64,000 bases of DNA from Corallococcus sp. AS-1-6 (GCF_020037015.1 NZ_JAIQDE010000007.1:179886-243885); one strand, 5' to 3'. Counted from the first letter of the stretch, positions 1 through 41,089 are shown. The notes: generated by a model from the sequence alone, not told the origin. A program made the numbers and translations.

Positions 1-195
1 GACCTGTGCCTGCGCGCGGGCGAAGCCGGGCTGCGTGTCCTCTACGCTCCCCATGCGCGCCTCGTGCGCACCCGTGCGCGGGAGGGCGCACCTGCGGCTT
101 CCCACGATGCCGACCGGCTCCGTGAAGCGTGGGTTCGCGCGGGACGGACCGACCCCACAGGGCATCCGCGGCTCGGCTTCGTCCAGACACCGTAG
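1..195 (+). CDS. Partial CDS: C-terminus of a family-2 glycosyltransferase (5' end lies outside the window)
   Basis: Frame 1 reads DLCLRAGEAGLRVLYAPHARLV... up to a TAG at 193-195. The DxCLR...G.R..Y.P.A...H pattern is the conserved C-terminal motif of GT2 enzymes. It is co-directional with the downstream glycosyltransferase gene. Confidence 0.5.
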   Translation, partial: DLCLRAGEAGLRVLYAPHARLVRTRAREGAPAASHDADRLREAWVRAGRTDPTGHPRLGFVQTP

Positions 196-271
196 AAAAG
201 AACAGCAAGCGCGCTTCCCTCCATGAGGAGCGGGCGGCCTGCCAGCCTTGACGCTCTCAGGGGGGGATGAC

Positions 272-3200
272 ATGGAGGACATCCGCCAAGGAGAGGGGGG
301 GCGTGCCTTGCCTGCCGCGAGGGTCTGCCTTCCGGACGCCACGAACATGCATCCACAGCTCAATCCCCTGGAACATCCCCTCTGCCTCACGCAGCCCCTG
401 CGCCTGCTGGAGTCCTCCGCCTGGGTGGAGCACGTCCCGTTCGCGATGTTCCTGGTGGACCTGCTGCGTCCCGCGACGCTGGTGGAGCTGGGGACGCACA
501 CCGGCGTGTCCTACTCCGCGTTCTGCCAGGCGGTGGACGCGCTGAAGCTGGAGACGCGCTGCCACGCGGTGGACACCTGGCAGGGCGACCCGCACGCGGG
601 CTTCTACGGGCCGGACGTCCTCGCGGACCTGCGCGCGCACCACGACCCGCTCTACAGCCGGTTCTCCCAACTGCACCCGATGACCTTCGACCAGGCCCTG
701 GGCCAGTTCGAGGACGGCTCCATCGACCTGCTCCACATCGACGGCTGCCACGAGTACGCGCAGGTGAAGGCGGACTTCGAGCGCTGGCGCCCCAAGCTGA
801 GCGCGCGCGGCGTCGTCCTCTTCCACGACACCCACGTGCACGAGCGCGACTTCGGCGTCTGGCGGCTGTGGGAGGAGCTGCGGGGCCAGCATCCCTCCTT
901 CGAGTTCGAGCACGGCTTCGGTCTGGGCGTGCTCGCGGTGGGCCCGGAGCAGCCGGAGGGGCTGTTGGCCCTGACGAGCACCCGGGACGCGGAGCGCGAA
1001 CACGTGCGGCAGGCCTTCGCCACGCTCGGCGGGCGCCTGACGCTCCTGCTGCACCGGCAGCACCTGCTCGACGCCTACGGCCAGAAGGAACAGCAGGCCG
1101 CGGACCACGCGCGTCAGGCGCAGCAGCTCCAGGCGGAGCTGGACGCCGCCCGCGAAGCGGCGCGCGACACCGCGAGCACCCTTCGCGAGTTCGAAGGCCG
1201 GCTCGCGCGGATGGGCCTGGCCCAGCGGATGCTCCAGGAGGAGCTGGGCCGCAAGAACGCCCGCATCTACGAACTGGACGCGCACGTGGCGACCCAGGGC
1301 TCGCAGTTGGCGCACATCAACGGCAGCCTCGCCTGGAAGGCCATCAACCGCTACTGGGCCATGCGCGAGCGCGTGCTGCCCCCCGGCACGAAGCGCGGCC
1401 ACCTCTACCAGAAGAGCAAGGGCACGCTGCACAAGGTGGGCGCGAAGCTGATCAAGCTGCCCGCGAAGAAGGGCGCCCTCCAGGCCCTGCGCGCCGCGAA
1501 GGCCGCCCTCACGCCGGCCGCCCCCGTCCCCCCCACCGCCGCCTTGGTCGAGGCCCCGAGCGCGCCGCCCGCGCGCCCGGCGCCGTGGACCGCGCCGCTC
1601 ACGCACGTCTCCCAGGCCAGCCTGGGCCGGCGCATCCTGATCATCGCGGAGCTGTCGCTGCCCCAGTGCAAGCGCTACCGCGTGGATCAGAAGGTCGCCA
1701 TGTTCCACCGGCTCGGGTACGACGTCACCGTCCTGCGCTGGAACGACCACGAGGAGTGCAAGGCCGCGCTCCAGTTCCACGGCCTGGTCATCTACTACCG
1801 GGTGCCCGCCTTCCCCGGCGTGGAGGAGCTGCTGGCGGAGACCCGGCGCCTGGGCCTCCCGCACTTCTTCGACGTCGACGACCTCATCTTCGACGTGGAG
1901 GAGTACCAGCGGAACACCAACGTGCAGCGGCTGCCCGCGAACGAGCGCGAGCTGCTGCTCAACGGCGCGAAGCTCTACCGCAAGGCGCTCAGCCTGTGTG
2001 AGCACGCCATCGCCAGCACGCCCACCATCGCGGAGCAGATGTCCCGCGTCATCTCCGGCAAGGTCTACGTCGTCGAGAACTGCCTGGACGACGGCATCCT
2101 GGAGCTGGCCCGGGAGATGGAGGCGCGCCCGCCCGCGGTGGACCCGGACACGGTCACCATCGGCTACGGCAGCGGAACGCGCACGCACGACGCGGACTTC
2201 ACCATCGCCGCCGACGCCATCCTCGCGGTGATGGAGCGCCATCCGAACGTGCGCCTGGCCATCCACGGCTTCCTGGAGCTGCCGGAGGGCTTCTCGCGCT
2301 TCTCCGACCGCGTCTTCCGCATTCCGTTCCTGGACGCGGACGACTACCTGCGCGCGCTCGCGTCCTGGCAGATCTCCATCGCGCCGCTGGAGCAGACGGT
2401 CTTCAACGACGCCAAGAGCAACATCAAGTTCATCGAGGCGTCCATCTTCCGCGTGCCCGCGGTGTGCTCCGGCTCCGGGCCGTTCCGGGAGATCATCGAC
2501 CACGGCCGCAACGGCTTCATCGCCACCACCCGTGAGGAGTGGGAGTCCGCGCTCTCCGCGCTGGTGCAGGACGCGTCGCTGCGCAAGCGCATGGGCGAGG
2601 AGGCGCACCGCAGCGTGCTGTCGCGCTACCACCCGGCGGTCGTGGCCACGGAGCGGCTGCAGCCCATCCTCCAGCACCTGCCGCCCGCGCCGCCGCCGCG
2701 CCTGAAGGTCCTGGAGGCCAACATCCTCTTCGCGCCCCTGAGCTTCGGCGGGGCCACCGTCGTCACGGAGCAACTGGCGCACCAGTTGAAGGCGGAGGGC
2801 TGCGACGTCACCGTGTTCACCGGCATCATGAACTCGCCGCTGCCCGCCTATTCGGTGGTGCGCTACGAGGCGCTGGGCCTGCCGGTCATCGCCACCCAGG
2901 TGCCGTCCCTCACCGACCGCGCCCAGGAGTACCAGAACCCGCGCATGGGGGAGACCTTCACCCAGGTGCTCAAGGCCGTGCGCCCGGACGTGGTGCACTT
3001 CCACTCCATCCAGCTCCTGAGCTCCGCGCTCGCCACGGCGTGCGCCGCGGAGGGCATCCCGTACACCATCACCGTGCATGACGCGTGGTGGCTGTGCGAG
3101 CGCCAGTTCATGGTCCGCGAGGACTCCACGTACTGCGGCCAGAAGGGCATCGACCTGCGCGTGTGCACCAAGTGCGTGCCGGACTCGCGCTACACCTTCA

Positions 3201-3958
3201 AGCGCACGTTCGCCCTGCGCAAGGTGCTGGACGGCGCGGCCCTGCTGCTGGCGCCCAGCGAGTTCCAGCGCCAGCTCTACATCGCCAACGGCGTCGCGCC
3301 GGAGCGCATCGTCGTGAACAAGAACGGCGTGCTGCTGCCCGGCCGCGCGCGCGCCCCGCGCCCCGCGAACGCCCCCGTCCGCTTCGCCTACCTGGGCGGC
3401 CGCGCGGGGCACAAGGGGTACTTCTGGCTCAAGGACATCCTGGAGTCGGTGCCGGAGTCCGGCTGGATCCTGAAGATGACCGACATCCAGTTGCGCATGG
3501 GGTCGGCCTCCATCGACGCGAAGGAATGGAAGGTGAAGGGCCAGGTGGAGGTGGTGCCTCCGTATGATCAGGACGGGATGGACGCCTTCTTCGACGGAGT
3601 GGACGTGCTGCTGATGCCCTCGCAGTGCAAGGAGAGCTTCGGGCTGACCGTGCGCGAGGCCATGGCCCGGAACGTGTGGGTGGTCACCACGGCGTCGGGC
3701 GGCGTCAGCGAGGACATCGTGGAGGGCGTCAACGGCAACGTCGTGGACATGTCGGACGCCGACGGCTTCCGCCGCGTGCTGCGCGACCTGGTGGCCCACC
3801 CGGAGCGCATCGCGCGCGACCCGAACGCCCAGCGCACTCCGGTGCGCGACTACGAGACCCAGGCCCGGGAGCTTCACTCGCTCCTGTCCGGCCTGGTGAA
3901 TCCTCCCGCCCGGAGCACGCCCCGCCAGGACGCCAGCGCCGCGGTGCCCCACCGTTGA
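272..3958 (+). CDS. Multidomain polysaccharide biosynthesis protein: N-terminal TylF/MycF-type class I SAM-dependent sugar O-methyltransferase, a coiled-coil segment, a GT-B glycosyltransferase domain and a C-terminal GT4 glycosyltransferase
   Basis: This is the 1236-aa ORF, with a likely start at MEDIRQ preceded by a G-rich RBS. The N-terminus has [13 protein letters not shown]...[15 protein letters not shown] (TylF-like MT). Residues ~270-340 are Q/E/R/A-rich coiled coil. Next comes a Pro-rich linker and a first GT-B-like domain. The last ~380 aa carry the GT4 E-x7-E signature ([11 protein letters not shown]). The antisense 1231-aa ORF is R/G/H-rich junk. Confidence 0.8.
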
Positions 3959-3975
3959 ACCCCCGGAGACGCTCC

Positions 3976-4848
3976 ATGCCCTTGTCCCAGCTCAAGGCCC
4001 TGATTCCTCCCGCGATCAAGACCGCCGTGCGCGCACAGCTCCAGACGGGGCTGCTGCGCACGGAGAACCAGTTGGCATCGCTCCGGTCTCGCTGGTCGCC
4101 GCCGGCCCCCGTGGAGCCGTCACCGCCGGTCGTCGAGGCGCCGCCACCGCCGGCCCCCGCGCTTCCGCCCATCACCCGGGAGCTCATCGCGGCCCAGTAC
4201 CTGCGCGGCGAGGGCCTGGAGATTGGAGCCCTGTCCAATCCCACGAAGGTGCCCGCCGGGGTCCGGGTCCGCTATGTGGACGTGGCGCCCATCGACGTGC
4301 TGCGCGCCCGCTTCCCGGAGGTGGCCGACCGCATCGTCACGCCGGACATCGTGGACAACGGCGAGGAGCTGGGCACGGTGGCGCCGGACTCCCAGGACTT
4401 CGTCATCGCCAACCACGTCCTGGAGCACTGCGAAGATCCCATCGGCACGCTGAAGAACTTCCTCCGGGTCCTGCGGCCCGGAGGCATCCTCTTCATGGCC
4501 ATCCCGGACAAGCGCTTCACCTTCGACCTGCCCCGGGAGCTCACCTCCGCGGCGCACGTCGTGGAGGACCACCTGAAGGGGCCGGAGGTCTCCCGGCGCG
4601 CCCACTACGACGAGTGGCTGCGCCTCATCGACCGGAAGGAGGGCGAGGAGCTGGCCCGCCTGACGGAGGACTTCCTCCAGAACCGCACGAACATCCACTT
4701 CCACGTGTGGACCTTCAACGAGATGTCCGAGCTGTTCTCCGCGGCCCGCAACCAGTTGGGCCTGCCCTTCGACGTCAAGCTGGCCTTCCTGGATCCGCCG
4801 TGTCTGGAGGTGGTGTGGGTCCTGGAAGTGACGAAGCCCCGGTCCTGA
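3976..4848 (+). CDS. Class I SAM-dependent methyltransferase (Methyltransf_11/23-like)
   Basis: ATG at 3976 lies 17 nt after the previous stop, with GGAG upstream. Motifs include LEIGALSNP and ANHVLEHCEDPIGTLKNFLRVLRPGGILFMAIPDK. It sits in a glycan cluster. Confidence 0.75.
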   Translation: MPLSQLKALIPPAIKTAVRAQLQTGLLRTENQLASLRSRWSPPAPVEPSPPVVEAPPPPAPALPPITRELIAAQYLRGEGLEIGALSNPTKVPAGVRVRYVDVAPIDVLRARFPEVADRIVTPDIVDNGEELGTVAPDSQDFVIANHVLEHCEDPIGTLKNFLRVLRPGGILFMAIPDKRFTFDLPRELTSAAHVVEDHLKGPEVSRRAHYDEWLRLIDRKEGEELARLTEDFLQNRTNIHFHVWTFNEMSELFSAARNQLGLPFDVKLAFLDPPCLEVVWVLEVTKPRS

Positions 4849-4852
4849 GCGC

Positions 4853-6250
4853 CTACGCCGGACCGTAGTAGCGCTGGTACACGGTGGTGAGCGTCACCAC
4901 CGTGGTGAGCAGGATGAAGCCGGCGATGAGCACCGGCTTGAGGCGCGTCAGCGCGCGCGGTGCCCAGGTGGGCGGGGCCAGCGCCACCACCAGTAGCGGC
5001 GTGTAGGGCAACAGGTAGCGGCCCTGCACCCCGTCCACGTGGTTCGCGCCCGGCGCCGTCCACGCCAGGTACAGCATGGCCTGGATGGCCAGTACGCCCG
5101 CCACCGCCACCCCCAGCGCCACCGCGCGCTCGCGCCAGCCCACCTTCGGGGCGGCCCCGTCGGCGTCCAGCACCATCACCCCCAGGAGCAACGCGGCCAG
5201 CCCGAGGAGCGCGGGGCGGGGCATCGGCGTGTCCAGCCAGCCCAGCACGCCGCCGCCCTGGTGCAGGAAGTCCGGCAGCCGCGTCCAGAAGTCGCTCACC
5301 AGCACGCCCAGCACCTGGAAGGGGTGCGCGCGCACGTGGGCCACCTGCGCCACCACCTCGCTGGGGCGGAAGATGTCCCGCACCGTGGCGGACCACGCGA
5401 ACTGGAGCAGCGCGGGCACGGCGACGATGGCGGCCAGCGCCAGGGCATAGCGGCCGCGCGTCCCCAGCCGGGTGAGCGGCAGCAGCAGGAACACCAGCGT
5501 CAGCGGCAGGTAGGCCTGCTTGCACAGCGCCACGAACACCGCGCTCGCCAGCAGCAGGCCCAGTTGCTTCGCGCCCAGCGGCCCCGGGTGCGCGAAGGTG
5601 AAATGCAGCGACAGCGCCACCAGCAGCAGGCACGCCGACATCGTGATGGGGTCCGCGGACACGGACGCGCGCTGGAAGAGCACCATGGGCGTGAGCGCCA
5701 GCAGCGCGAAGGCCCACCGCTGGAAGGGCATCAGGCGCAGCGCCACCGCGGTGAGCACCAGCGCCACCAGCACGTTGCCCAGCCGGCCCGCCCACAGCAC
5801 CACCACCGGGGGCGCCTCCAGGATCCGCGCGGGCGCCATGCCCAGCGACTGCGGGAAGTAGACCAGCGGGAAGTAGATGGCGGACGCGGCGAAGCGCCAC
5901 TCCTGGGTGTCCTGGGGCGCCAGCGCCGCGTGCATCGCGTCGCGCAGGCGCTGCCGGTCCTGGCGCGCCGCGGGGTTGCCGCCCACGCCCTCGGACACCT
6001 CCTGCGCCACCCGCACGATGCTGCGCGGGAGCTGCCCGCCCGCGTCACCCACCGGGATGCGCGTGGCCGTGAGCTGCCCCTCGGAGACCTGGTACGCGCG
6101 GTAGAAGTGCGCCGGCTCGTCCGCCACCTGGAACGGCGGGGTGAGGAAGCTCAACACCGCGCCCAGCACCGCGGCCACGACGAGGAAGGCCACGACGGGC
6201 GCGATGAAGAACGGACGCAGCGGGGACGGGGACGGAGCAGACGGAAGCAT
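4853..6250 (-). CDS. DUF2142 family polytopic membrane protein (GT-C-like periplasmic glycosyltransferase candidate)
   Basis: 465 aa with >=10 predicted TM helices. The N-terminal ADEPAHFYRAYQVSEG motif is typical of DUF2142. It is downstream in an operon with GT2 and a small membrane protein. Confidence 0.7.
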   Translation of the reverse strand: MLPSAPSPSPLRPFFIAPVVAFLVVAAVLGAVLSFLTPPFQVADEPAHFYRAYQVSEGQLTATRIPVGDAGGQLPRSIVRVAQEVSEGVGGNPAARQDRQRLRDAMHAALAPQDTQEWRFAASAIYFPLVYFPQSLGMAPARILEAPPVVVLWAGRLGNVLVALVLTAVALRLMPFQRWAFALLALTPMVLFQRASVSADPITMSACLLLVALSLHFTFAHPGPLGAKQLGLLLASAVFVALCKQAYLPLTLVFLLLPLTRLGTRGRYALALAAIVAVPALLQFAWSATVRDIFRPSEVVAQVAHVRAHPFQVLGVLVSDFWTRLPDFLHQGGGVLGWLDTPMPRPALLGLAALLLGVMVLDADGAAPKVGWRERAVALGVAVAGVLAIQAMLYLAWTAPGANHVDGVQGRYLLPYTPLLVVALAPPTWAPRALTRLKPVLIAGFILLTTVVTLTTVYQRYYGPA

Positions 6251-6277
6251 GGAGGACGGAGGGGGCCCGGTGGGCCC

Positions 6278-6694
6278 TCAGGCGGCGTGCGGGTCGCGCC
6301 GGGCTGCGGCGGCGGGGGGGACGGCTTCGGGACGGGGCTGCGCGCGCGCGGCGCGCTCGGCCTCCGCGGAGGTGAGCAGGGCGACCTCCTGGGCCAGCCG
6401 CTTGAGCTGCTGGCGCTGATCCGCCACCTGGAGGCTCAGCCGGTACACCAGCCACATGAGGCACGACAGGGCGATGAAGAAGAGGGCGGACGGGGCGTAG
6501 TAGATGCCCATGGCCGCGGCCAGCGCGTCGATGCCGTGGCGCCACAGCGACAGGCCCGCGATGGCCGCCGCCACCAGCAGCCACGCGAAGGTGTGCCGCT
6601 CGCTGGTGCGCCGGCCCCGGGCCGACCACAGGACGCTGAAGGCGAAGACGGCCGCGAAGGCCACGCCGATGAGGCTGGAGCGAAGCATGGGCAT
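6278..6694 (-). CDS. Small membrane protein (DUF2304-like; GtrA-like flippase candidate) with a C-terminal coiled coil
   Basis: Start MPMLRSS at 6694 overlaps the GT2 stop (TGATG). It has 3-4 TM helices followed by a QQLKRLAQEVALL coiled coil. GT2 + DUF2304 + DUF2142 is a common triad. Confidence 0.5.
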   Translation of the reverse strand: MPMLRSSLIGVAFAAVFAFSVLWSARGRRTSERHTFAWLLVAAAIAGLSLWRHGIDALAAAMGIYYAPSALFFIALSCLMWLVYRLSLQVADQRQQLKRLAQEVALLTSAEAERAARAQPRPEAVPPAAAARRDPHAA

Positions 6695-7392
6695 CAGACG
6701 GGACGGACCCGCTCCATGAGCAGGGCGAAGGACACCTTCGCCATGTAGAAGGCCGACTTCCACGGCGTCAGCGAGCTGGTGCCGGTGAGGCGCGGCCGCA
6801 TGCGCACCGGCACCTCCGCGATGGCGAAGCCCTGGCGCGCCGCCATCAGCACGCTCTCCGGCTCCGGGTAGTCATGCGGGTGGACGCGCGCGAAGAAGCG
6901 GATCGCCTGCGGACCGAAGCCCCGGAAGCCGGAGGTGGGGTCGGTGATGCGGTGGCGGCTCAGCGTGGACAGCAGGCCCGCCAGGAACCGGTTGCCGAAG
7001 CGGCGCAGCCGCGTGGAGCGGAAGCTGGTGACGCCCGCGAAGCGGCTGCCGATGACCAGCTCCACGCCCGACTGGAGCGCCTCGCGCAGCGCGGGCACGG
7101 ACGCCGGGTCATGCTGGCCGTCGCCGTCCATGCGGATGACGTGGTCGTACCCGTTGCGGGACGCGAACAGCAGGCCGCTGGCCTCGCCCGCGGCGACGCC
7201 CAGGTTGAAGGGATGGCTGAGCACCCGCGCCCCGCAGTCCCGCGCGCGCTGCGCCGTGGCGTCGCGCGAGCCGTCGTCCACCACGAGCACGTCGAACTCC
7301 GGCAGCGCCTCGCGCAGCTCCGCCACCGTCGAGCCGATGCACTCCTCTTCGTTGAAGGCCAGCAACACGATGAGGCCCCGTCGGGTGTCCAT
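6694..7392 (-). CDS. GT2 polyprenol-phosphate glycosyltransferase (DPM1/ArnC/GtrB-like)
   Basis: LIVLLAFNEEECIG...VLVVDDGSRD...RMDGDGQHDP are classic GT2-A motifs (DxD, DGQH). It is 232 aa. Confidence 0.8.
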   Translation of the reverse strand: MDTRRGLIVLLAFNEEECIGSTVAELREALPEFDVLVVDDGSRDATAQRARDCGARVLSHPFNLGVAAGEASGLLFASRNGYDHVIRMDGDGQHDPASVPALREALQSGVELVIGSRFAGVTSFRSTRLRRFGNRFLAGLLSTLSRHRITDPTSGFRGFGPQAIRFFARVHPHDYPEPESVLMAARQGFAIAEVPVRMRPRLTGTSSLTPWKSAFYMAKVSFALLMERVRPV

Positions 7393-7684: not shown

Positions 7685-8188
7685 TCAGCGGCCCCGGCGC
7701 CGCGAGGGCGCGCGGCGCGGCGGCTCCTTCGGGGGCTCCTGTGGAGTGGGAGGCAGGCGCGACAGCAACTGCTCCAACTGGCGCTCCACCTCCTGGCGCC
7801 ACAGGGACTGCGTGCGCGCCTGGACGCGCTGGTGCTCGTGGATGAGCGCGAGCGCGTCCAGGATGGCCTCGTTGAACTCCACCTGCCGCCGGAGCGCCTC
7901 GTTGATGAAGGGCTGGAACGCCAGCCGGAAGGCGCGCTTGGCCATCACCAGCGCGGGCCCCACCAGGGGCCGGTGGGATGAAGGCGGATCCGCGTAGCGC
8001 GCGTCCCGCTTCAGCCGCGCGCCCTCCAGGAACGGGGGCCACGCGGCGTTGATGGCCGGGGCCTGGGTGGCGGCGAGGCGCCGGCGCAGCGCCTCCACCT
8101 TCTCGGGCTCCGGCGTGGGCAGCCGCGCCAGGGACTCCAGCACCGCCTCCACCGTGGGGTCGCGGGTGATGAGGTCCTCAGCGCGCAT
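7685..8188 (-). CDS. Hypothetical protein
   Basis: 167-aa ORF. It overlaps the 3' end of the upstream GT4 gene by 11 nt. There are no recognisable motifs. Coding status rests only on the operon context. Confidence 0.35.
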   Translation of the reverse strand: MRAEDLITRDPTVEAVLESLARLPTPEPEKVEALRRRLAATQAPAINAAWPPFLEGARLKRDARYADPPSSHRPLVGPALVMAKRAFRLAFQPFINEALRRQVEFNEAILDALALIHEHQRVQARTQSLWRQEVERQLEQLLSRLPPTPQEPPKEPPRRAPSRRRGR

Positions 8189-9824
8189 GCGGGTGTCCTC
8201 CCACGTCCAGCTCCCTCGCCAGCTCCGCCGCGAGCGACACCAGGTCGCGCCCCGGGGTGAGCTCCCACAGCTTCTTTCCCAGGACCTGCTTGACGCCCGC
8301 GTCCGGCGCGCGGCGGGCCTCCCAGACGCCCGCGACGCACGCCTCCGGCGGCAGCCGCGACACGGTCCTCCGGGCGACCTCCTCCCCGGCGCCCGCGAAC
8401 AGCAGCGGCCCGGAGGCGCACCGCACGCCCGTCTCCAGCGACGACGACGGCGGGCTGACCCCCTCCAACCCGAAGGAGGGCTCGTCCGGCGTGAAGCGCC
8501 GCACCCGCGTCACGCCCTCGTGCTCGTCGCGCGGAGCCAACTGGAGGGGCAGCACCTGCCGGCGCACCGTCCACAGGCTCGCGTCCGGCAGCCGGTCCAC
8601 CACCGCGCGCGCCAGCCGGGACATGGGCGCGTCCGGCGCGGCGTCGAAGCCCGGGCACACGACGGTGGCGGCGGGTCCGGCGGGAGGGCGGGCGTGGGGC
8701 GCGGCTCCCTGGAGGAAGGGCGTGAGCGCCTCGCGCACGCGCTGGGCCACGGCCTGCTGGTCCAGGGACGCCAGGCGCTGGCGCTGCGCCTCCACCACCC
8801 GCGAGCGCAGGGCGGGGTCGCGCTCCAGCACCGCCAGCAGCCCCGCCACCTGCGCGGGGTCGTCCGACAGGGTGGTGAGGCCCGCGCCGCCCATGGTCTC
8901 CGGCACCGCCGCGGCGCCGTAGGCCACCACCGGCACGCCCCGGTACATGGCCTCCAGCAGCGGCACGCCGAAGCCCTCGTGGCGGCTCATGGAGAGGTAC
9001 GCGGTGGCGGAGGCGAAGCACGCGGACAACTGGGCGGCGTCCACCCGCCCCAGGAACACCACGCGATCCGGGCCCAGTTGCTCGCGCAGCGCCAGCACGG
9101 ACGCGTCATAGGGCGCGCTGCTGTAGAGCGTCCCCGCCACCAGCAGCCGGCTCCGGGGCTGGTACAGGCGCTGGTAGGCGGTGAAGACGCGCAGCACGTC
9201 CTCCAGCCGCTTGCTGGGCACGGTGCGGCCCACGAAGAGCACGTTGGCGCACCCGTCCGCCATCTGCTCGCGCAGGGCCGCGTCCGGCGCCACGTTGAAC
9301 GCGTTCCAGTCCACCGCGAAGGGCAGGACGCTCGCGTCCGGGTAGCCCGCGGCGGACAGCTCCTCCACGCTGAAGTGCGAGTAGGCCCAGGCGTGCGTCA
9401 CGTGCTCGCGGAGCTGGAGCAGCTCCTCGCGCGCCAGCATGCAGCCGCGGGCGACGTGGCGGTCCGTGCCCTCGAAGAACCGCTCGGGCGTGACGTTGTG
9501 GTACAGCAGCGCCTTGCGCCCCTTGGCCTTGGCCACCAGCGGCACCAGCCTCGACTCGAAGCTGTGGTGGACGAGCAGCGCGGTGTCCCGGCCCGCGTCG
9601 CGGGCGTAGTCCAGGGCGGGGCGCACCTCGTCGCGGCACGCCTCGTCCCACTGCTCCGCGTAGATCTCCGACGCGTACCCCCACCCGCGCAGCAGGTCGC
9701 GCAGGTAGCGCACCTGGTTGCCCACGGCGTCGCCCCAGGCCAGCCGCGGCACGAGCTGGTGGACCGCTCCGGCGCTCGAGGACGCGGTCCCTCGCTTGCT
9801 GTTCCAGAGGCTCACGTTGGGCAA
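8178..9824 (-). CDS. Glycosyltransferase family 4 (GT-B)
   Basis: 548 aa. EGFGVPLLEAMYRGVPVV is the GT4 E-x7-E motif. N-terminal and C-terminal Rossmann-like halves are present. Confidence 0.75.
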   Translation of the reverse strand: MPNVSLWNSKRGTASSSAGAVHQLVPRLAWGDAVGNQVRYLRDLLRGWGYASEIYAEQWDEACRDEVRPALDYARDAGRDTALLVHHSFESRLVPLVAKAKGRKALLYHNVTPERFFEGTDRHVARGCMLAREELLQLREHVTHAWAYSHFSVEELSAAGYPDASVLPFAVDWNAFNVAPDAALREQMADGCANVLFVGRTVPSKRLEDVLRVFTAYQRLYQPRSRLLVAGTLYSSAPYDASVLALREQLGPDRVVFLGRVDAAQLSACFASATAYLSMSRHEGFGVPLLEAMYRGVPVVAYGAAAVPETMGGAGLTTLSDDPAQVAGLLAVLERDPALRSRVVEAQRQRLASLDQQAVAQRVREALTPFLQGAAPHARPPAGPAATVVCPGFDAAPDAPMSRLARAVVDRLPDASLWTVRRQVLPLQLAPRDEHEGVTRVRRFTPDEPSFGLEGVSPPSSSLETGVRCASGPLLFAGAGEEVARRTVSRLPPEACVAGVWEARRAPDAGVKQVLGKKLWELTPGRDLVSLAAELARELDVGGHPHAR

Positions 9825-9938: not shown

Positions 9939-10964
9939 ATGAACGTCCTGGTGACAGGGGGCTGCGGCTTCATCGGCTCCAACCTGGTGAAGTACCTCCG
10001 CCGCGAGCGGCCCGACTGGAAGATCATCAACCTCGACAAGCTCACGTACGCGGGCAACCTCGAGACCCTCGCCGACCTGGAAGGCGACCCGAAGCACGTC
10101 TTCGTGCGCGGCGACATCGGCAACCGGGAGCTGGTGGAGCACCTGCTCGTCCAGCACGGCGTCGACGCCGTGATGCACCTGGCGGCCGAGAGCCACGTGG
10201 ACCGCTCCATCCTGGGCCCGGAGGTGTTCATCAACACCAACGTGCTGGGCACCCAGCAGCTCCTGGAGGCCTGCCGCGCCCGGGGCGTGAAGCGCTTCCT
10301 GATGGTCTCCACCGACGAGGTCTACGGCTCGCTGGGCCCCACGGGCGCCTTCACGGAGACCTCTCCGCTGCAGCCCTCCAGCCCGTACTCCGCCTCCAAG
10401 ACGTCCTCGGACCTCATCGCGCTGGCCTACCACCACACGTTCAAGATGGACGTGGTGGTGACGCGCTGCTCGAACAACTACGGCCGCTACCAGTTCCCGG
10501 AGAAGCTCATCCCGCTGATGGTGGTGAACGCGCTGCACGACAAGCCGCTGCCCGTCTACGGCGACGGCGCCAACGTGCGCGACTGGCTCCACGTGGAGGA
10601 CCACTGCCAGGGCCTGCTGGTGGCGCTGGAGAAGGGCCGTGCGGGCGAGGTCTACAACATCGGCGGCGGCTCCGAGCGGCGCAACATCGAGATCGTCAAG
10701 GGCATCCTGGGCCTCTTGAAGAAGCCCGAGTCGCTCATCCAGTACGTGGCGGACCGGCCCGGCCATGACCGGCGCTACGCCATCGACCCCACGAAGATCC
10801 GCACGGAGCTGGGCTATCAGCCGAAGCACACCTTCGAGCAGGGGCTGGCGGAGACGGTGACCTGGTACATGGAGAACCGCGCCTGGTGGGAGCGCGTCAC
10901 CAGCGGCGCCTACCGCCAGTACTTCGACACCCAGTACAAGGCCCGTCTGCAGGGGCGGGGTTAG
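9939..10964 (+). CDS. rfbB: dTDP-glucose 4,6-dehydratase
   Basis: MNVLVTGGCGFIGSNLV... carries the GxxGxxG NAD motif and the YxxxK signature (YSASKTSSDL). It is 342 aa and first in a canonical rfbBDAC order. Confidence 0.9.
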   Translation: MNVLVTGGCGFIGSNLVKYLRRERPDWKIINLDKLTYAGNLETLADLEGDPKHVFVRGDIGNRELVEHLLVQHGVDAVMHLAAESHVDRSILGPEVFINTNVLGTQQLLEACRARGVKRFLMVSTDEVYGSLGPTGAFTETSPLQPSSPYSASKTSSDLIALAYHHTFKMDVVVTRCSNNYGRYQFPEKLIPLMVVNALHDKPLPVYGDGANVRDWLHVEDHCQGLLVALEKGRAGEVYNIGGGSERRNIEIVKGILGLLKKPESLIQYVADRPGHDRRYAIDPTKIRTELGYQPKHTFEQGLAETVTWYMENRAWWERVTSGAYRQYFDTQYKARLQGRG

Positions 10965-10968
10965 CGCC

Positions 10969-11868
10969 ATGCGCTTCGTCGTCACGGGGGCCAACGGCCT
11001 GGTGGGCAGCCGCGTCTGCGCGCAGTTGACCGAGCGCGGACACGAAGTCGTGGGCCTGGGGCGCGGGCCCCGGCGCACGGGGGGCACGCACGGCTACGTG
11101 GAGGTGGACCTCACGCGCGAGCAGGACGTGGCCTCGGCCATCGCCCAGGCCCGTCCGGAGGCCATCATCCACCCCGCCTCCATGACGGAGGTGGACGCGT
11201 GTGAGAAGGACCCGGACGCGGCCTACGCGGCGAACGTCCACGCCACCGCGGCGGTGGCCCGCGCGGCGAAGGCGGCGGGCGCGCACCTGGTGCACGTCTC
11301 CACGGACTACGTCTTCGACGGGGACGCGGGGCCTTATTCGGAGGACGCGCTGCCCAACCCGCGCGGCGTCTACGCGCTGACCAAGCACATGGCGGAGCAG
11401 GCGGCGCGCGTCTTCGTGCCGGGCTGCGCCATCGCGCGCACCGCGGTGGTGTACGGCTGGCCCGCGGCGGGGCGCCCCAACTTCGGGGCCTGGCTGGTGG
11501 GGGCGCTGGAGAAGGGCCAGCCGGTGAAGCTCTTCGAGGACCAGGTGGTGTCCCCCAGCTTCGCGGACAGCGTGGCCGCCATGCTGGTGGAGCTGGGCGA
11601 GCGGCGGCTCGGCGGCGTGTGGAACACCTGCGGCGGCACGGTCATCGACCGGGTGGGCTTCGGCCGGGCGCTCTGCGAGGTGTTCGGCTTCGACGCGTCG
11701 CTCATCACCCCCACGCGGATGGCGGACCTGAAGCTGGCCAGCCCCCGCCCGCTGCGAAGCGGCCTCAAGACGGACAAGGTTCGTACGGAGCTGAAGGCCC
11801 AACCGCTGGAGCTGGCGGAGTCCCTGGCGCGCTTCCACGCGGCCTGGAAGGCGCACCGCGCCGGTTGA
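10969..11868 (+). CDS. rfbD: dTDP-4-dehydrorhamnose reductase
   Basis: [16 protein letters not shown]... 299 aa. It lies immediately after rfbB and has the typical RmlD length and motifs. Confidence 0.85.
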
Positions 11869-11939
11869 GCATCCGCGCGTGGCGGCCGGGCCGCGCGCAT
11901 CCGTTTCGCGGCCGCGCCGTGGAACACAGGGGAGCACGC

Positions 11940-12821
11940 ATGAAGGGAATCATTCTGGCCGGGGGTTCGGGCACGCGCCTGTACCCGCTGACGCGCGTGG
12001 TGAGCAAGCAACTGCTGCCCGTCTACGACAAGCCGATGATCTACTACCCGCTGACGACGCTGATGCTGGCGGGCATCCGGGAGATCCTCGTCATCTCCAC
12101 GCCGCAGGACCTGCCGCGCTTCCGCGAGCTGCTGGGCGACGGGGAGCAGTGGGGCATCCGCCTCCAGTACGCCGAGCAGCCGCGCCCGGAGGGCCTGGCG
12201 CAGGCGTTCGTCATCGGCCGGGACTTCGTGGGCAAGGATCCGGTGTCGCTCATCCTGGGTGACAACATCTTCTACGGCCACGGCATGGGGGAGCTCACGC
12301 AGCGCGCGTCGAAGCGCACGCAGGGCGCCACGGTGTTCGGCTACTACGTGAAGGATCCGGAGCGCTACGGCGTGGTGGAGCTCAACGCCCAGCACAAGGC
12401 CGTCAGCATCGAGGAGAAGCCGGCGAAGCCCAAGTCGCACTACGCCGTCACGGGCCTGTACTTCTACGACAACCAGGTCATCGACATCGCGGCGAACCTC
12501 AAGCCGGGCAAGCGCGGCGAGTACGAAATCACCGACGTCAACGCGGAGTACCTGCGCCGCGGCCAGCTCAACGTGGAGCTGATGGGACGCGGCTATGCGT
12601 GGCTGGACACCGGCACGCACGAGTCGCTGATGCAGGCCTCCAACTACATCGAGATCATCGAGCGCCGTCAGGGCCTCAAGGTGGCCTGTCCGGAGGAGAT
12701 CGCCTTCCGCATGGGCTACATCGACGAGCAGCGGCTGACGGCGCTGGCGGAGCCCATGCGCAAGAACGAATACGGCCAGTACCTGTTGGACCTGGTGGAG
12801 AAGCGGGGGGCGGTGTCGTGA
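11940..12821 (+). CDS. rfbA: Glucose-1-phosphate thymidylyltransferase
   Basis: [18 protein letters not shown]...[11 protein letters not shown] is the hallmark RmlA N-terminus. It is 293 aa. Confidence 0.9.
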
Positions 12822-13363
12822 AGGTCACCCCGCTGGCGATTCCGGACGTCCTGCTCATCGAGCCGAAGGTGTTCGGCGACGACCGGGGCTTCTTCCTCGA
12901 GTCCTTCCACGCGAAGCGCTACGCGGACGTGGGCGTCGTGGGACCGTTCGTGCAGGACAACCTGTCGCGCTCGGTGAAGGGCACGCTGCGAGGGCTGCAC
13001 TTCCAGGAGCCGAACGCGCAGGGCAAGCTGGTGCAGTGCCTGGCGGGCGCGGTGTGGGACGTGGCGGTGGACATCCGCAAGGGGTCGCCCACGTTCGGCC
13101 GCTGGGTGGCCGCGGAGCTGACGGGCGAGAACAAGCACCAGCTCTGGGTGCCGGCGGGCTTCGCGCACGGGTTCTGCGTGGTGAGCGACTCGGCGGACTT
13201 CTTCTACAAGTGCACGGCGCTGTACTCCCCGGAGTCCGAGCGCAGCGTGGTCTGGAATGATCCGGACCTGGCCATCCCCTGGCCCGTGAAGGAGCCCCTG
13301 CTCTCGCCCAAGGATCAGCGCGCGCCCCGGCTGAAGGACGCGCCCGTGCTGCCCGTCTTCTGA
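12818..13363 (+). CDS. rfbC: dTDP-4-dehydrorhamnose 3,5-epimerase
   Basis: GTG start overlaps the rfbA stop (GTGA). [13 protein letters not shown] and [11 protein letters not shown] are RmlC cupin motifs. It is 181 aa. Confidence 0.85.
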
Positions 13364-22825: not shown

Positions 22826-25830
<3,005 letters not shown>

Positions 25831-31301: not shown

Positions 31302-34300
31302 TCAGTTCCCCCGGGCCGGGTTCTGACGGCGACGCGACGTGCCCCAGGCCGCCAGCGCGGCGAGGAGCGCCAGCGCGGACGAGCCGCCGCCGGTGCTGTC
31401 GCAGCCACCGCCAGCGATCTCCACGACCTGCGCCTGGACCCGGACCTGGAACGTGCACTGCGCGGTGTTGCCCGCCTCATCCGTGGCGGTGACGGTGACC
31501 TGCGTGGCCCCCGGCGCGAACGCGCTGCCTGAGTCGGGCGAGGACGTCACGGTGGGATTCGCCGTCACCGCGTCCGTGGCCGTGGGCGTGAACGTCACCT
31601 GCGTGTCCGGCGCCACCGTGATGTCCGCGGGGCAGGTGACGGTGGGCGCGGTGGTGTCCTGCACCGTCACCGTGAACGTACAGGTGAGGCCGGTGGAGGT
31701 CGCGGTGACCGTCGTGGTGCCAATGGGGAAGAGCGCGCCCGACGGCTGCGAGTAGCTCACCGGGAGGCCCGCCGGCTCCAGCACCGCGGGGTCGTAGGTC
31801 ACGATCGCGCCGTCCGGATCCGTCGCCTCCACGACGAGGTTCGCGGGGCAGGTGAGGGTGGGGGCCACGACGTCCTCCGTCACGTTGAGGGTGACGGTGG
31901 CGACGTTGCTGTCCGTGGCGCAGTCGCGGACGCGGTACGTGAAGCTGTCCGGGCCCACGTAGCCCGCGGCGGGCGTGTACTCGAGGTTCCCCTGCGCGCT
32001 GGTGCCCAGCGTGCCGTGCTGCGGCGGGGTGACGATCGTCCAGGTCAACACCTGTCCGACGTCCGGATCCGTGCCGGCCAGGGCGAGCGCCGTCGGCGTG
32101 TCCTTCTGGATGGTGACCGTCTGGTCCGCCGCCGTCGGGGGCTGGTTGGCGACGACCGTCACCATGCGGCCGCCGGGGATGGCGTTAGCGAAGACGGAGA
32201 GCGCGTAGGTGCCCAGCGGCACGTCGGCGGGCACGGTCACCGTCGCGCGGGTGTCGGAGGTGTTGCTGCTGGGGAGCGTCCAGAGACGCCCGCCCTCCGC
32301 GGCCTGCAGGCGCACCAGCGGGAAGTCGGTGGGCGAGTCCGCGCTGTTGCCGCCGCTTCCGCCGGAGATGCCCCGGAACCGCTGGCCCTCCACGACGGTG
32401 GGGCAGGCGGCGACGAGGGTCGCCGGGTTCGTCACCGTGGGCTTCCAGGCGGTCTGGGCCCGGGTGTCGTCATACACCTGCGCGTTGGTGGCCTCCTGAC
32501 CGCCCGCCAGCAGGACCTCGCCCGAGGACAGGGCGACGCTGAACAGGCCTCCCGCGGCAGTGGGGTCCGCGACGTTGATCCACGCGCGGAGGAGGGGGTC
32601 ATAGACCTCCGCCGTGTTGGCGTAGTCGCCATTCGTGGTGATGCCGCCCGCGGCCAGCACCTTGCCGGAGGCCATCAGCGTGGCGGTGTGCAGCCAGCGC
32701 GGCTGCGAGAGCGCGCCCACGGACGTCCAGGTGTTGGTGCCGGGCGCGTAGAGCTCCGAGGACGTGAGCTCCGTGCCGCCCGAGATGCCGCCCGCCGCGA
32801 GCACCTGGCCCGACGGCAGCAGCGTCAGCGTCAGCTCGTCCCGGGCGCCCGCGAGGCCCGCCGCCGGGGTCCAGGTGTCGTTGGCGGGGTTGTAGATCTC
32901 CGCCGAGGCCAGCGCCGTGCCACCGGCGTTGTGGCCGCCAGCGACGAGCACCCGGCCGTCATGCAGCAGCACGGCGCGGTGTCCGGCGCGCGCCGCGACG
33001 AGCGAGCCCGCCGCGGTCCACGTATTCGTGTCGGGCGCGTAGAGCTCCGCGCTGCCCAGCACCGTGGTGTTCTGCTGACCGCCGACCACGAGCACGCGGC
33101 CATCCGGCAGGAGCGTGGCGGTGTGCAGGTGGCGCGGGCTCAGCATGTTCTCGGTGGCCAGCCACGTGTTGGTGGTGGGGTCGAAGCGCTGCGCGTTGGG
33201 CGTCGAGGTGTTCACGTTGCGGCCACCCGCGACCAGGACCTGTCCCGAGCGCAGGAGGGTGGCGGTGCCCCGCTCGCGCGGCACGTCGAGGTCGGGCAGG
33301 GCGGTCCACGCGTTGCTCGCGCGGTCATACAGCTCCGCCGCGGGTGACGACGTGAAGAGGCCGCGGCCTCCCACGACGAGCACCTGGCCGGAGGGCAGCA
33401 GCGCCGCCGCGGAGTCGGTCCGGGGCGTGCCCATGGTGCCAGCGGGAGACCAGCGGCTCAGGGCGGGGTCGTAGACCTCCGTCTGCGCGAAGAACGTCGT
33501 CCCGGGGGTCGTGGAGAATCCGCCCGCGATGAACACCTTGCCCGAGGGCAGCAGCGTCGCGGTGTGGTTCTCGCGGCCGACGCCCATGGTGCCGCCGGAG
33601 GTCCACGTGCCGGTGGCAGGGTCGTAGATCTCGGCCGAGGTCAGCGCCGGCGACCCGAAGACAGAGCCGCCGGTGACGAGCACCCGGCCGTCAGGCAGCA
33701 GCGTGGCCATGTGGCCGGCGCGCGCGGACGCGAGGCTGCCGGTCGCGGTCCAGGTGTTGGCCGCCGGATCGTAGAGCTCCGACTGGCTCGTGGCGCCGCC
33801 CGCGGCGAAGCCACCCGCGACGAGCACGCGGCCGTCGGGGAGCAGGGTGCTGGTGAAGTAGTGCCGGGCCACCAGCGGGGGCGCCGCGGCGGACCAGGTG
33901 CCGGTGGCCGGATTGTAGAGGTCGGCGCCGGACACCTCTCCGCTGCCGCTGAAGCCGCTCACCACGAGCACGCGCCCATCGCGCAGCCGCGTGGCGCTGT
34001 GCGCGTTCCGGCCCACGGACATGGAGCCCGTGGCGGTGAAGGCGTTGGTCGCGGGGTCGTAGAGCTCCGCGGTCGCGAGCCGGACGCCGCCACCACCGGT
34101 GCCGCCCGCGATCAGGACCTGGCCCGTGGCCAGCAGCGTGGCCGTGGGGAGGCTGCGGGTGGAGGCCATGTTGCCCGTGCCGGACCAGGTGTTGGCCACG
34201 GGATCATAGATGCGTCCCCCCTGCGAGCCGTCGGTCAGCACCAGCACCTTGCCCGAGGGAAGGAGCACGGCCAGGGTGATGTTGCCCGTGAGGCTGGAGG

Positions 34301-40950: not shown

Positions 40951-41089
40951 CAGCGCCCGCCTGTTCGCTCGTATCAGCAACAGGAGGGGGAGACGTGCGC
41001 TGCCCCGCCCCCTCCCTGACAACTGGTGCACGATGGGGGCCTGCCGGAGATTGCTCCGGTACGGTCACCCCACCGAAGACGAGCGCACC

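Follow-up and report, generated by a model that had tools for sequence, protein, structure and literature searches.

A single open reading frame at positions 272–3958 (plus strand) of the stretch of Corallococcus DNA analysed here (the window, 64,000 nucleotides) joins an O-methyltransferase, a long coiled coil, a basic proline-rich linker, a divergent GT-B module and a GT4 module. This fusion protein is likely to be a single-polypeptide polymerase–terminator for a glycan exported by an ABC transporter, the leading candidate for the product being the O-polysaccharide of Corallococcus coralloides lipopolysaccharide (LPS). The principle behind this design has been established in Klebsiella pneumoniae O12 WbbB and O7 ORF6, Escherichia coli WbdD/WbdA and Geobacillus WsaE. 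The module set of the fusion protein is uncharacterised and is a variant of this terminator–ruler–polymerase design, a concept that the present finding leaves unchanged.

Serum resistance and phage adsorption depend on O-antigen chain length, as do motility and development in myxobacteria; the idea that a coiled coil serves as its ruler rests on a few enterobacterial systems. The family described here would add a version that is distant in evolution, consists of one polypeptide and uses the simplest possible cap, a methyl group.

Organization of the fusion protein

The gene lies within one open frame of the plus strand (248–3958, by ORF scan), with a clean frame plot, a GC3 of 0.96 and a GC2 of 0.45. 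Its start codon is ambiguous: ATG 272 (1,228 residues) has the better Shine–Dalgarno-like run, and the N termini of homologues point to the equivalent of ATG 347 (1,203 residues). Residues are numbered here from ATG 272. An equally long frame on the minus strand, translating into low-complexity Arg, Gly and Ala, was rejected as a high-GC artefact.

Pfam identifies Methyltransf_24, Glyco_trans_1_2, Glyco_transf_4 and Glycos_transf_1 in the protein, and the original prediction of a methyltransferase, coil, Pro-rich linker and two GT-B domains joined in a single ORF is borne out by the reading frame, Pfam and AlphaFold. Fifteen loci belonging to several genera encode the same order of domains, as do dozens of database entries 1,166–1,254 residues long, and the fusion is therefore no assembly artefact. 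In the three catalytic modules, motifs are invariant over 29–36 homologues sharing 38–94% identity.

At the N terminus is a SAM-dependent O-methyltransferase domain (425–976, plus strand; Pfam, AlphaFold and Foldseek), the predicted chain-terminating module. Residues 71–187 match Methyltransf_24 (PF13578; 89.1 bits against a gathering threshold of 26.3), AlphaFold pLDDT is mostly >90, and the motifs VELGxHxGxS, HIDGxH and FHD are invariant among homologues, the SAM-binding and HIDG/HD motifs being intact. The closest solved structure is Mycobacterium hassiacum MeT1 (6g7d/6g80), a sugar 1-O-methyltransferase that is the top Foldseek match (6g80, E 2e-10) and is followed by cation-dependent COMT-like O-methyltransferases; the profile match to 6g7d spans and aligns the HIDG...HD motifs, at 16–21% identity. 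The TylF-type label first given to the domain did not hold, as no TylF family occurs in the Pfam output at E ≤ 0.01 and the domain is structurally nearest to MeT1 and COMT-like enzymes; judged by these matches, the domain is Methyltransf_24/MeT1-like and not demonstrably TylF. By analogy with the established systems, methylation would be the act that terminates the chain.

Following the methyltransferase is a coiled coil (986–1321, plus strand), the predicted molecular ruler. AlphaFold models residues 239–350 (214–325 when counted from ATG 347) as an unbroken, proline-free helix of ~112 residues, roughly 16–17 nm in length. The heptad register is constant over roughly residues 265–365, 19 of the 26 a/d positions being hydrophobic or Ala, and the hydrophobicity of the coil has power at periods of 3.5 (z 4.4, p 0.005) and 7/3 (z 4.0), with no signal at 3.6. 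Register, periodicity and model thus agree with the coil that had been predicted, but not with its length: the register span and the AlphaFold helix put it at about 90–112 residues, exceeding the ~70 first estimated. A ruler function is suggested by analogy with WbdD and WbbB.

Between the coil and the glycosyltransferase modules is a basic Pro-rich linker (1328–1627, plus strand), predicted from its composition and AlphaFold model to be a membrane-proximal tether. It contains 13 Pro in 96 residues and short amphipathic helices, carries a net charge of +14, and is modelled with low pLDDT as short helices. The net charge of the linker is +5 to +14 in 29/29 homologues, even though nearly all the full-length proteins carry a net negative charge; this charge pattern is consistent with membrane binding by the linker.

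GT-B module 1 (1640–2680, plus strand), a predicted chain-extending glycosyltransferase, is divergent and of the Glyco_trans_1_2 type. PF13524 covers only its C-terminal half (residues 650–794, 35 bits against a cut-off of 25), and the first Glu of the EX7E motif is missing. AlphaFold gives two Rossmann-like halves (pLDDT about 90) with a secondary structure that fits GT-B, hhalign aligns the module with the donor-binding domain of module 2 (probability 69%, E 4e-5), and its length is kept at 366–376 residues among homologues.

GT-B module 2 (2702–3904, plus strand), the predicted second chain-extending glycosyltransferase, is canonical. It comprises Glyco_transf_4 (residues 825–1020, 81 bits) and Glycos_transf_1 (residues 1083–1178, 88 bits), with an invariant EX7E motif (E1121/E1129) and an invariant Cys4 insertion (C942, C955, C965 and C968); both domains, EX7E and the GT-B fold place it in the GT4 type of CAZy. 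In structure matches the glycosyltransferase part of the protein is GT4-like, as is the O-antigen enzyme WbnH, and ManT (7qsg) is among the top GT4 matches. GT4 enzymes are configuration-retaining. In some relatives of the fusion protein the third module consists of WsaF_N/WsaF_C domains. The donors used by the two modules may include dTDP-rhamnose; the GT2 proteins of the cluster could be the rhamnosyltransferases, and the polymerase could comprise more than the fusion protein.

The gene cluster and its exporter

The flanking region was taken from a locus of C. coralloides KYC2213 (L006) that is 100% identical to the window. A search for wzm and wzt outside the window, advised by the original prediction, found both upstream and on the same strand as the fusion gene: wzm (L006 3225–4004; Pfam ABC2_membrane) and wzt (L006 4001–5311; Pfam ABC_tran and Wzt_C) end about 4.3–6.4 kb upstream of the window start. 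Wzt_C spans residues 290–411 of Wzt (45.4 bits against a cut-off of 30.4), and the closest solved relative of the ATPase is the Aquifex O-antigen Wzt (E 3e-59). In loci with a fused methyltransferase in which Wzt was found, 7/7 Wzt proteins align through the C-terminal Wzt_C domain; in loci lacking the methyltransferase, Wzt has a C-terminal extension in only 6/13.

Genes of the Wzx, Wzy, Wzz and Wza families are found neither in the cluster nor in the rest of the window. The original prediction would have fallen with a Wzx/Wzy-made product and no wzm/wzt near the cluster; with wzm/wzt present and Wzx/Wzy absent, the ABC-transporter route stands. The "characteristic marker" given for this assembly strategy is an extended coiled coil that carries the terminator at its far end, and a Wzt carbohydrate-binding module (CBM) is present in all characterised examples of terminated O-polysaccharides (PMC11231755). 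The locus has the features of this coiled-coil terminator–polymerase class: Wzm/Wzt, a Wzt CBM domain, an extended coil and a methyltransferase distal to the glycosyltransferases.

At the window start is the 3' end (1–195, plus strand) of a gene for a 733-residue GT2-family glycosyltransferase, complete in L006 (7648–9849; Glycos_transf_2 E 2e-31 and a second GT2-like stretch) and kept upstream of the fusion gene in Myxococcaceae loci; it is a candidate adaptor or backbone enzyme. After the fusion gene comes the second stand-alone methyltransferase already noted there, the class I enzyme MT2 (3973–4848, plus strand; Pfam Methyltransf_11/23/12), which has a helix at its N terminus and a linker rich in Pro. 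The MT2 and fusion genes are immediate neighbours in Corallococcus, Rhodopila and two MAGs, one of Myxococcaceae and one of Alphaproteobacteria; in Variovorax, MT2 is encoded about 1 kb upstream of the fusion gene.

Encoded next on the minus strand is an accessory trio. The DUF2142 polytopic membrane protein (4853–6250; Pfam E 6e-70), presumably of GT-C type, is a predicted periplasmic side-chain glycosyltransferase, and in the distant loci L015 and L018 its gene accompanies the di-glycosyltransferase gene and that of the small GT2. The small DUF2304 membrane protein (6278–6763; Pfam E 1.6e-23), of GacJ/Rv3632 type, is predicted to activate the polyprenyl-phosphate sugar synthase encoded beside it; where its frame starts is uncertain, as it overlaps the next gene. 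This gene encodes the predicted synthase, a small GT2 (6694–7392; Pfam Glycos_transf_2) that is GacI/PpgS/AglJ-like, its best NCBIfam matches being AglJ and PpgS (E 1e-23, below cut-offs). In Streptococcus pyogenes, GacL is a polytopic membrane transferase that decorates the exported polymer, a rhamnan in streptococci; unlike the GacL system, the trio has DUF2142 as its predicted membrane transferase, and no dedicated flippase gene was seen with it. The pairing of a GT2 synthase with a DUF2304 protein is shared with S. pyogenes GacI/GacJ and Mycobacterium tuberculosis PpgS/Rv3632, in which GacJ stimulates GacI and Rv3632 stimulates PpgS (bioRxiv 10.1101/180810).

Farther along the minus strand are a 167-residue protein (7685–8188) with no Pfam or NCBIfam match, kept in the forms of the cluster found in Myxococcaceae (L001, L003 and L004 carry homologues), and a 548-residue GT4-family glycosyltransferase (8178–9824; Pfam Glycos_transf_1 E 3e-21), another candidate adaptor or backbone enzyme. 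As originally noted, dTDP-L-rhamnose genes lie downstream: the cluster ends with the predicted rfbBDAC (9939–13363, plus strand), comprising rfbB (9939–10964; GDP_Man_Dehyd/Epimerase), rfbD (10969–11868; RmlD_sub_bind), rfbA (11940–12821; NTP_transferase), all by Pfam, and rfbC (12818–13363; RmlC-like translation). The BrkB, HxlR, GST and kinase genes downstream are unrelated.

In the mechanism that we propose, the strongly basic linker would keep the two C-terminal GT-B modules close to the membrane while they extend the glycan, and the GT2 and GT4 proteins encoded nearby would serve as adaptors or co-polymerases. The coil (about 112 residues, about 16 nm and probably oligomeric) would project the MeT1-like O-methyltransferase off the membrane. 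A non-reducing end reaching the methyltransferase would be O-methylated, ending its extension, and coil length would therefore set the modal chain length. Wzt would recognise the methyl cap through its C-terminal carbohydrate-binding domain, such that Wzm/Wzt export capped chains only, and in the periplasm the GT2–DUF2304–DUF2142 trio may add a side-chain sugar from a polyprenyl-phosphate donor. The final acceptor would presumably be lipid A–core, yielding LPS O-antigen.

Related systems and alternative readings

The likeness to WbdD and WbbB systems that was originally proposed holds for architecture (the methyltransferase–coil–glycosyltransferase order) but not for sequence, in which no similarity was detected. 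In E. coli O8/O9a (K. pneumoniae O3/O5), WbdD has its methyltransferase at the end of a coil ruler, as in the fusion protein; at its membrane end is WbdA, a polymerase with two glycosyltransferase modules, and the cap is recognised by the CBM of Wzt. In O8 a bare methyl group serves as the cap, and WbdA belongs to GT4. The fusion protein looks like a WbdD-style terminator fused to a WbdA-type polymerase. WbdD and WbdA are, however, two separate proteins, with a kinase in the O9a form, whereas the fusion is one protein without a kinase domain in Pfam; their polymer is polymannose, whereas the present cluster holds rml genes. WbdD gave no PDB match to the full protein (E ≤ 0.01) or to the methyltransferase profile (E ≤ 1), and is not among the best 50 Foldseek matches. 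WbbB of K. pneumoniae O12 and Raoultella terrigena has the same N-to-C order of termination module, coil ruler and two-module polymerase, and its cap is likewise read by the CBM of the exporter Wzt. Its terminator is a GT99 β-Kdo transferase and its polymerase GT102/GT103, whereas the terminator here is a methyltransferase; no WbbB chain is among the PDB sequence matches to the full protein (E ≤ 0.01).

K. pneumoniae O7 ORF6 (1,414 residues) likewise has an N-terminal methyltransferase-containing terminator, a coil and two polymerising C-terminal glycosyltransferases; these are rhamnosyltransferases, and ORF6 both terminates and polymerises (PMC11231755). The O7 cluster, like the present one, contains wzm, wzt and rml genes, and export depends on its terminator (Kelly et al. 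2024, PMC11231755). ORF6 differs in adding methyl-phosphate by means of an extra kinase and an Ig-like CBM, both absent from the fusion protein, in its CgnL-like methyltransferase (MeT1/COMT-like, Methyltransf_24, in the fusion) and in its GT2 modules of GT-A fold (GT-B/GT4 in the fusion).

Geobacillus stearothermophilus NRS 2004/3a WsaE is summarised in reviews as trifunctional, with two rhamnosyltransferase domains and, at the N terminus, an O-methyltransferase by which the terminal rhamnose is capped; wzm/wzt lie immediately upstream and rml genes downstream, and binding of the methylated end by Wzt is predicted. The architecture and gene order of the fusion match this published description. 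WsaE differs in making a Gram-positive S-layer protein glycan, and these review summaries do not mention a coiled coil for it. MeT1 acts on a mannoside, methylating the reducing-end 1-OH; MeT1 and ManT, of methylmannose polysaccharide synthesis, are cytoplasmic, lipid-carrier-independent and separate small enzymes, unlike the fusion.

The same complex could instead use methylation as decoration, with the Methyltransf_24 domain, MT2 or both O-methylating sugars in every repeat, the coil only oligomerising or scaffolding, and chain length set otherwise. In mycobacterial polymethylated polysaccharides sugars are O-methylated within the chain, and MT2 is conserved beside the fusion gene, so one or both methyltransferases could modify internal residues; methylation by WsaE in vitro is also summarised as independent of chain length. 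A per-residue modifier would, however, be expected beside the polymerase, and the methyltransferase lies at the far end of a long heptad coil, the length of which shifts in heptad blocks while the enzymes stay constant. Together with the carbohydrate-binding domain of Wzt, in characterised systems the companion of terminal caps, and the fold-family level of the MeT1 and GT4 similarities (14–21% identity), this makes decoration unlikely.

Whether the product is an O-antigen is a separate matter, as the mechanism proposed could build a different glycan exported by an ABC transporter, for instance a rhamnan that is capsule-like or on the cell surface, or a protein-linked glycan as in S-layers. 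WsaE, the closest single-protein analogue, is summarised as making a protein-linked glycan, and no WaaL ligase or initiating phosphoglycosyltransferase gene lies within the 84 kb examined. Among 185,579 species genomes scanned, no relative of the fusion protein was detected in Myxococcus xanthus, and the locus is therefore variable within the family. Yet M. xanthus makes its O-antigen through a Wzm/Wzt pathway with ligase and priming enzyme identified as genes separate from Wzm/Wzt (PMC7484181), so that their absence from the present cluster would not be unusual. Capsule export genes (KpsD/E and Wza) and an oligosaccharyltransferase are absent, and a CBM-bearing Wzt combined with rml genes and a coiled-coil terminator is the classical O-polysaccharide signature; a product of another kind is quite improbable. 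Least expected of all is an exopolysaccharide made by a Wzx/Wzy route, the fusion being a multi-domain glycosyltransferase with a tailoring methyltransferase. Myxobacteria do carry several Wzx/Wzy pathways elsewhere in their genomes (PMC7484181), but the wzm and wzt of this cluster on the strand of the fusion gene, and the absence of Wzx, Wzy, Wzz and Wza from every gene of the cluster and window, make this route highly improbable.

Coil-length variation and the wider family

Read as a polymerase–terminator, the fusion protein may, we tentatively suggest, be the founding example of a self-contained class with a wide distribution. Its members would combine a MeT1-like methyltransferase, coil, basic tether, GT-B and GT4 modules and usually an MT11 partner, add a bare O-methyl cap without a kinase, and tune chain length by heptad-stepped coils (46–207 residues) across Myxococcota, Burkholderiaceae, Halomonadaceae and Acetobacteraceae-related lineages. 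The labels 'glycosyltransferase' and 'class I SAM-dependent methyltransferase' are at present given to proteins of Corallococcus, Pyxidicoccus, Caballeronia, Paraburkholderia, Vreelandella and Rhodopila that are probably chain-length-determining polymerase–terminators.

The natural series of coil lengths makes the ruler hypothesis testable by comparison and by heptad engineering. Should coil length predict modal O-polysaccharide length, the ruler rule would extend beyond Enterobacteriaceae and be predictable from sequence. Variation of the coil in heptad blocks gives indirect support to its setting chain length. Among homologues, the anchor-to-anchor distance across the coil ranges from 46 to 207 residues, and module 1 stays at its near-constant length. 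The 53 distinct coil lengths are non-uniform modulo 7 (chi-square p 0.013), a moderate heptad-phase statistic with two phases enriched, not one, and include a ladder of 74, 81 ... 137. Between close relatives, coil indels are clean blocks of +7, +14 and +21, the +21 block being a tandem RDQLTQT repeat.

The fusion protein and its domains

At window positions 272–3958 on the plus strand is a single gene, referred to here as the mega gene, whose product joins a methyltransferase (MT), a coiled coil, a linker, a divergent GT-B glycosyltransferase (GT module 1) and a GT4-type glycosyltransferase (GT module 2). The window has a G+C content of 70% and consequently carries long open reading frames on both strands; here, ORFs 248..3958 (+) and 257..3952 (−) overlap. 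Owing to a GC3 of 0.96 in the plus frame (GC2, 0.45), a third-position G+C of ~0.95–1.00 throughout it, and a minus-strand translation that is Arg/Gly/Ala-rich noise, the plus-strand gene is real; the minus-strand frame is a high-GC shadow ORF. The start codon is ambiguous between two in-frame ATGs, one at 272 (the originally predicted start, preceded by GGGGGGA; residues are numbered from it) and one at 347 (the equivalent of the start of annotated homologues), and function is unaffected by the choice. Exact matching of the protein, with either start used, gave no hit.

Pfam matches on the plus strand comprise Methyltransf_24 (residues 71–187, 89 bits), Glyco_trans_1_2 (residues 650–794, 35 bits), Glyco_transf_4 (residues 825–1020, 81 bits) and Glycos_transf_1 (residues 1083–1178, 88 bits). 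AlphaFold models the N-terminal 458 residues (36 aligned sequences, mean pLDDT of 83) as a confident α/β methyltransferase fold, a helix running without a break through residues 239–350 and three short helices, followed by a Pro-rich stretch that is disordered as far as GT module 1. The model of residues 457–1228 (mean pLDDT of 89, pTM of 0.84) consists of two tandem modules of two Rossmann-like halves apiece. Pfam and AlphaFold thus bear out the original prediction of the ORF and its domains, the length of the coil excepted.

The sole solved relative of the MT detected by sequence is 6g7d (E-value of 0.019), with the invariant HIDGxH...FHD motifs aligned, and structural comparison ranks that enzyme, MeT1 of Mycobacterium hassiacum, first (PDB 6g80, E-value of 2e-10), ahead of cation-dependent catechol- or caffeoyl-CoA-type O-methyltransferases. 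As MeT1 is a sugar O-methyltransferase, a carbohydrate hydroxyl is, by analogy, a plausible substrate; the label ‘TylF-type’, originally applied to this domain, is rejected, as no Pfam TylF model matched. The EX7E motif is invariant in GT module 2 (E1121/E1129), and its first Glu is missing from GT module 1; the donor-binding domains of the two modules align by hhalign with a probability of 69% (E-value of 4e-5).

Following the coil is a linker segment with 13 prolines and a net charge of +14. In every one of the 29 aligned homologues this segment has a net charge between +5 and +14, and almost all of these proteins are net acidic as a whole. Directly after the coil (window ~1325–1360), most homologues (P0013–P0119) carry the motif S-T-S-W-R-x-T-x-P-x-R, which is also kept where the C-terminal GT modules differ and is degenerate in myxobacteria.

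A coiled coil of variable length

The helix spanning residues 239–350 is of the coiled-coil kind and not simply amphipathic, as indicated by a single heptad register throughout, hydrophobicity power at periods of 3.5 (z of 4.4) and 7/3 (z of 4.0) with none at 3.6 (5,000 shuffles), and hydrophobic residues or Ala at 19 of 26 a/d positions. The originally proposed coil is therefore present, with a heptad register and an AlphaFold helix, and is longer than the ~70 residues first assigned to it.

Between conserved anchors, the coil segment measures 99 residues in several Corallococcus, 106 in Pyxidicoccus xibeiensis, 120 in C. praedator, and 99, 106 or 113 among Caballeronia and Paraburkholderia species, while the length of GT module 1 stays at 366–376 residues. 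The differences align as clean blocks: +7, +14 (a repeated ERDRVIQE unit) and +21 (a tandem RDQLTQT repeat). Across 97 homologues the anchor distance is 46–207 residues, and the 53 distinct lengths are non-uniform modulo 7 (chi-square P of 0.013, kinship ignored), with two heptad phases enriched (phase 4, n = 13; phase 1, n = 14) and lengths climbing from 74 to 137 in a ladder of 7-residue steps. A single heptad phase over all homologues is not significant by the binomial test after correction, a weaker result than the first 29 sequences suggested. As the modulo-7 statistic is moderate, more weight is given to the clean indels of 7, 14 and 21 residues between close relatives, which are the stronger observation. 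In sequence comparison, the coil behaves like a spacer of variable length that holds its register, as a ruler would, which is no proof that it sets chain length.

Gene cluster and exporter

The upstream neighbour of the mega gene is cut by the window edge, and its missing part was read in the Corallococcus coralloides KYC2213 locus (L006), which matched at 100% when one genome per species was scanned (subtracting 9654 from an L006 position gives the window position). There, all on the same strand, lie wzm, wzt, a gene for a 569-aa protein, a gene for a 733-aa GT2 protein and the mega gene. Upstream of the window, therefore, are the two exporter genes whose presence near the cluster was to be checked: wzm (ABC2_membrane) and wzt (ABC_tran and Wzt_C, the latter scoring 45.4 bits, above its cut-off of 30.4), the Wzt ATPase being closest to the structurally characterized Aquifex O-antigen transporter (E-value of 3e-59). 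A scan of the whole window for Walker A and LSGGQ motifs found only an ABC-F ATPase (22826–24661) and no polysaccharide ABC transporter. The alternative of an exopolysaccharide made by a Wzx/Wzy route without wzm and wzt is at odds with this exporter pair and with the ~20-kb cluster, within which no Wzx, Wzy, Wzz or Wza was found. WaaL and an initiating transferase are likewise missing from the cluster.

Downstream of the mega gene are a stand-alone methyltransferase gene, MT2 (3973–4848 (+)), a convergent block of three genes (4853–7392 (−)), genes for a 167-aa protein and a GT4 protein, and rfbB, rfbD, rfbA and rfbC, after which unrelated genes follow; both the second methyltransferase and the rfb genes are where they were first described. 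Among solved structures, MT2 has no informative relative (best E-value of 0.026). In Myxococcota, Alphaproteobacteria and Variovorax (L001, L002, L004, L008, L014, L053, L060 and L069), its gene lies beside the mega gene as a conserved neighbour. Appended to MT2 is a helical segment, comprising an N-terminal helix and Pro-rich linker in myxobacteria and a long C-terminal helical extension ending ...W..MLPLRR in the alphaproteobacterial versions; this segment may serve in docking or as a membrane element.

Three proteins are encoded by the convergent block: a DUF2142 membrane protein, which we take to be the membrane transferase of the trio; a GacJ-like protein of the DUF2304 family; and a small GT2 protein, which is matched best by two polyprenyl-phosphate sugar synthases, AglJ and PpgS. 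The trio looks like a three-component periplasmic side-chain glycosylation system for an exported polymer. In the DUF2304 family, GacJ activates GacI and Rv3632 activates PpgS (bioRxiv 10.1101/180810). In Oleiphilaceae and Terasakiispira, too, the pair of DUF2142 and small GT2 genes is found, there beside di-GT genes that have no MT part.

Two further proteins of the cluster match no family: the 167-aa protein (7685–8188 (−)) and the 569-aa protein encoded between wzt and the GT2 gene (L006 5868–7577), which has only sub-threshold GT2 hints and is conserved in all Myxococcaceae versions of the cluster.

Distribution, related systems and a proposed mechanism

A protein search returned 2,681 proteins at E ≤ 1e-10, the best matches (1,166–1,254 aa, with the same Pfam set) coming from Corallococcus, Pyxidicoccus, Cystobacter, Paraburkholderia, Caballeronia, Vreelandella and Rhodopila. 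The methyltransferase–coil–GT module is also joined to other third modules (WsaF_N/WsaF_C or GT2). Among 79 genomic loci, the full fusion is present in 15. Another 56, mostly Acetobacteraceae, encode the two GT modules but no methyltransferase, and in 7, all of them from Actinomycetota, the modules are spread over separate genes. This pattern is what has been called, in Klebsiella, the ‘variable distribution of catalytic modules’ (PMC11231755). For the most part, stand-alone two-GT loci (within L011–L078) are from Acetobacter, Gluconobacter and Neokomagataea and have no wzm or wzt within 10 kb; some include part of the coil. In Myxococcaceae, synteny of wzm, wzt and the genes for the 569-aa and GT2 proteins with the mega gene is conserved; ~2.3 kb of extra sequence between the GT2 gene and the mega gene in four loci (L002–L004 and L007) is absent from C. 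coralloides.

According to Kelly et al. 2024 (PMC11231755), a coiled-coil protein characteristically marks this assembly strategy. In the same account, O12 WbbB has terminator and polymerase in a single polypeptide, the methyltransferase-kinase of O7 ORF6 is joined through a coil to two rhamnosyl-GT2 modules, and the carbohydrate-binding module (CBM) of Wzt reads the cap in all characterized terminated O-polysaccharide examples. The mega protein lacks the kinase and internal CBM of ORF6, and has a methyltransferase where WbbB has a Kdo transferase; WbdD and WbdA, unlike it, are split, and their methyltransferase family is unrelated. Geobacillus WsaE, as reviews describe it, has an N-terminal 2-O-methyltransferase and two rhamnosyltransferase domains, with wzm–wzt upstream and rml downstream, whereas the mega protein has a long coil and a Gram-negative host. 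The proposed likeness to WbdD and WbbB thus holds for design and not for sequence homology, as no relatives of either were found by phmmer, profile search or Foldseek. The design principle is already established and the mega protein applies it, in a combination of modules that is uncharacterized yet widespread.

These results support the original interpretation of a polymerase and terminator of an ABC-transporter-dependent pathway. In the mechanism we propose, the GT modules and basic tether would sit at the membrane, the site of Und-PP-linked chain growth, and the coil (112 residues × ~0.148 nm, roughly 16–17 nm) would hold the methyltransferase out in the cytoplasm. Extension would halt once the non-reducing end is methylated, only capped chains would be admitted to Wzm/Wzt by the Wzt binding domain, and the accessory trio would add a side-chain sugar in the periplasm. 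Wzt aligns through its C-terminal binding domain in 7/7 full-fusion loci with a detectable Wzt, which are phylogenetically clustered, and in 6/13 MT-less loci with Wzt, a sequence pattern that fits this model. With its natural heptad ladder and simple predicted methyl cap, the family is well suited to testing the ruler hypothesis beyond Enterobacteriaceae.

Elsewhere in the window, an island of ~49% G+C (~19.6–22.8 kb) contains a two-gene Hachiman anti-phage system (19745–22704 (+)) encoding HamA (DUF1837, 281 aa, E-value of 5e-103) and HamB (helicase, 705 aa, E-value of 3e-193). Its G+C content within a 70% G+C genome suggests horizontal acquisition; an Rfam search of the island matched no family. 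Unrelated to the cluster are a gene for a 1,099-aa Kelch β-propeller protein with Big_9/cadherin-like and HYR domains (31302–34601 (−)), adjoined by one for an OmpA/TSP3 protein, and a gene for a 941-aa protein that unites CoA-ligase/ATP-grasp and GNAT acetyltransferase parts in one fusion (41033–43858 (+)).
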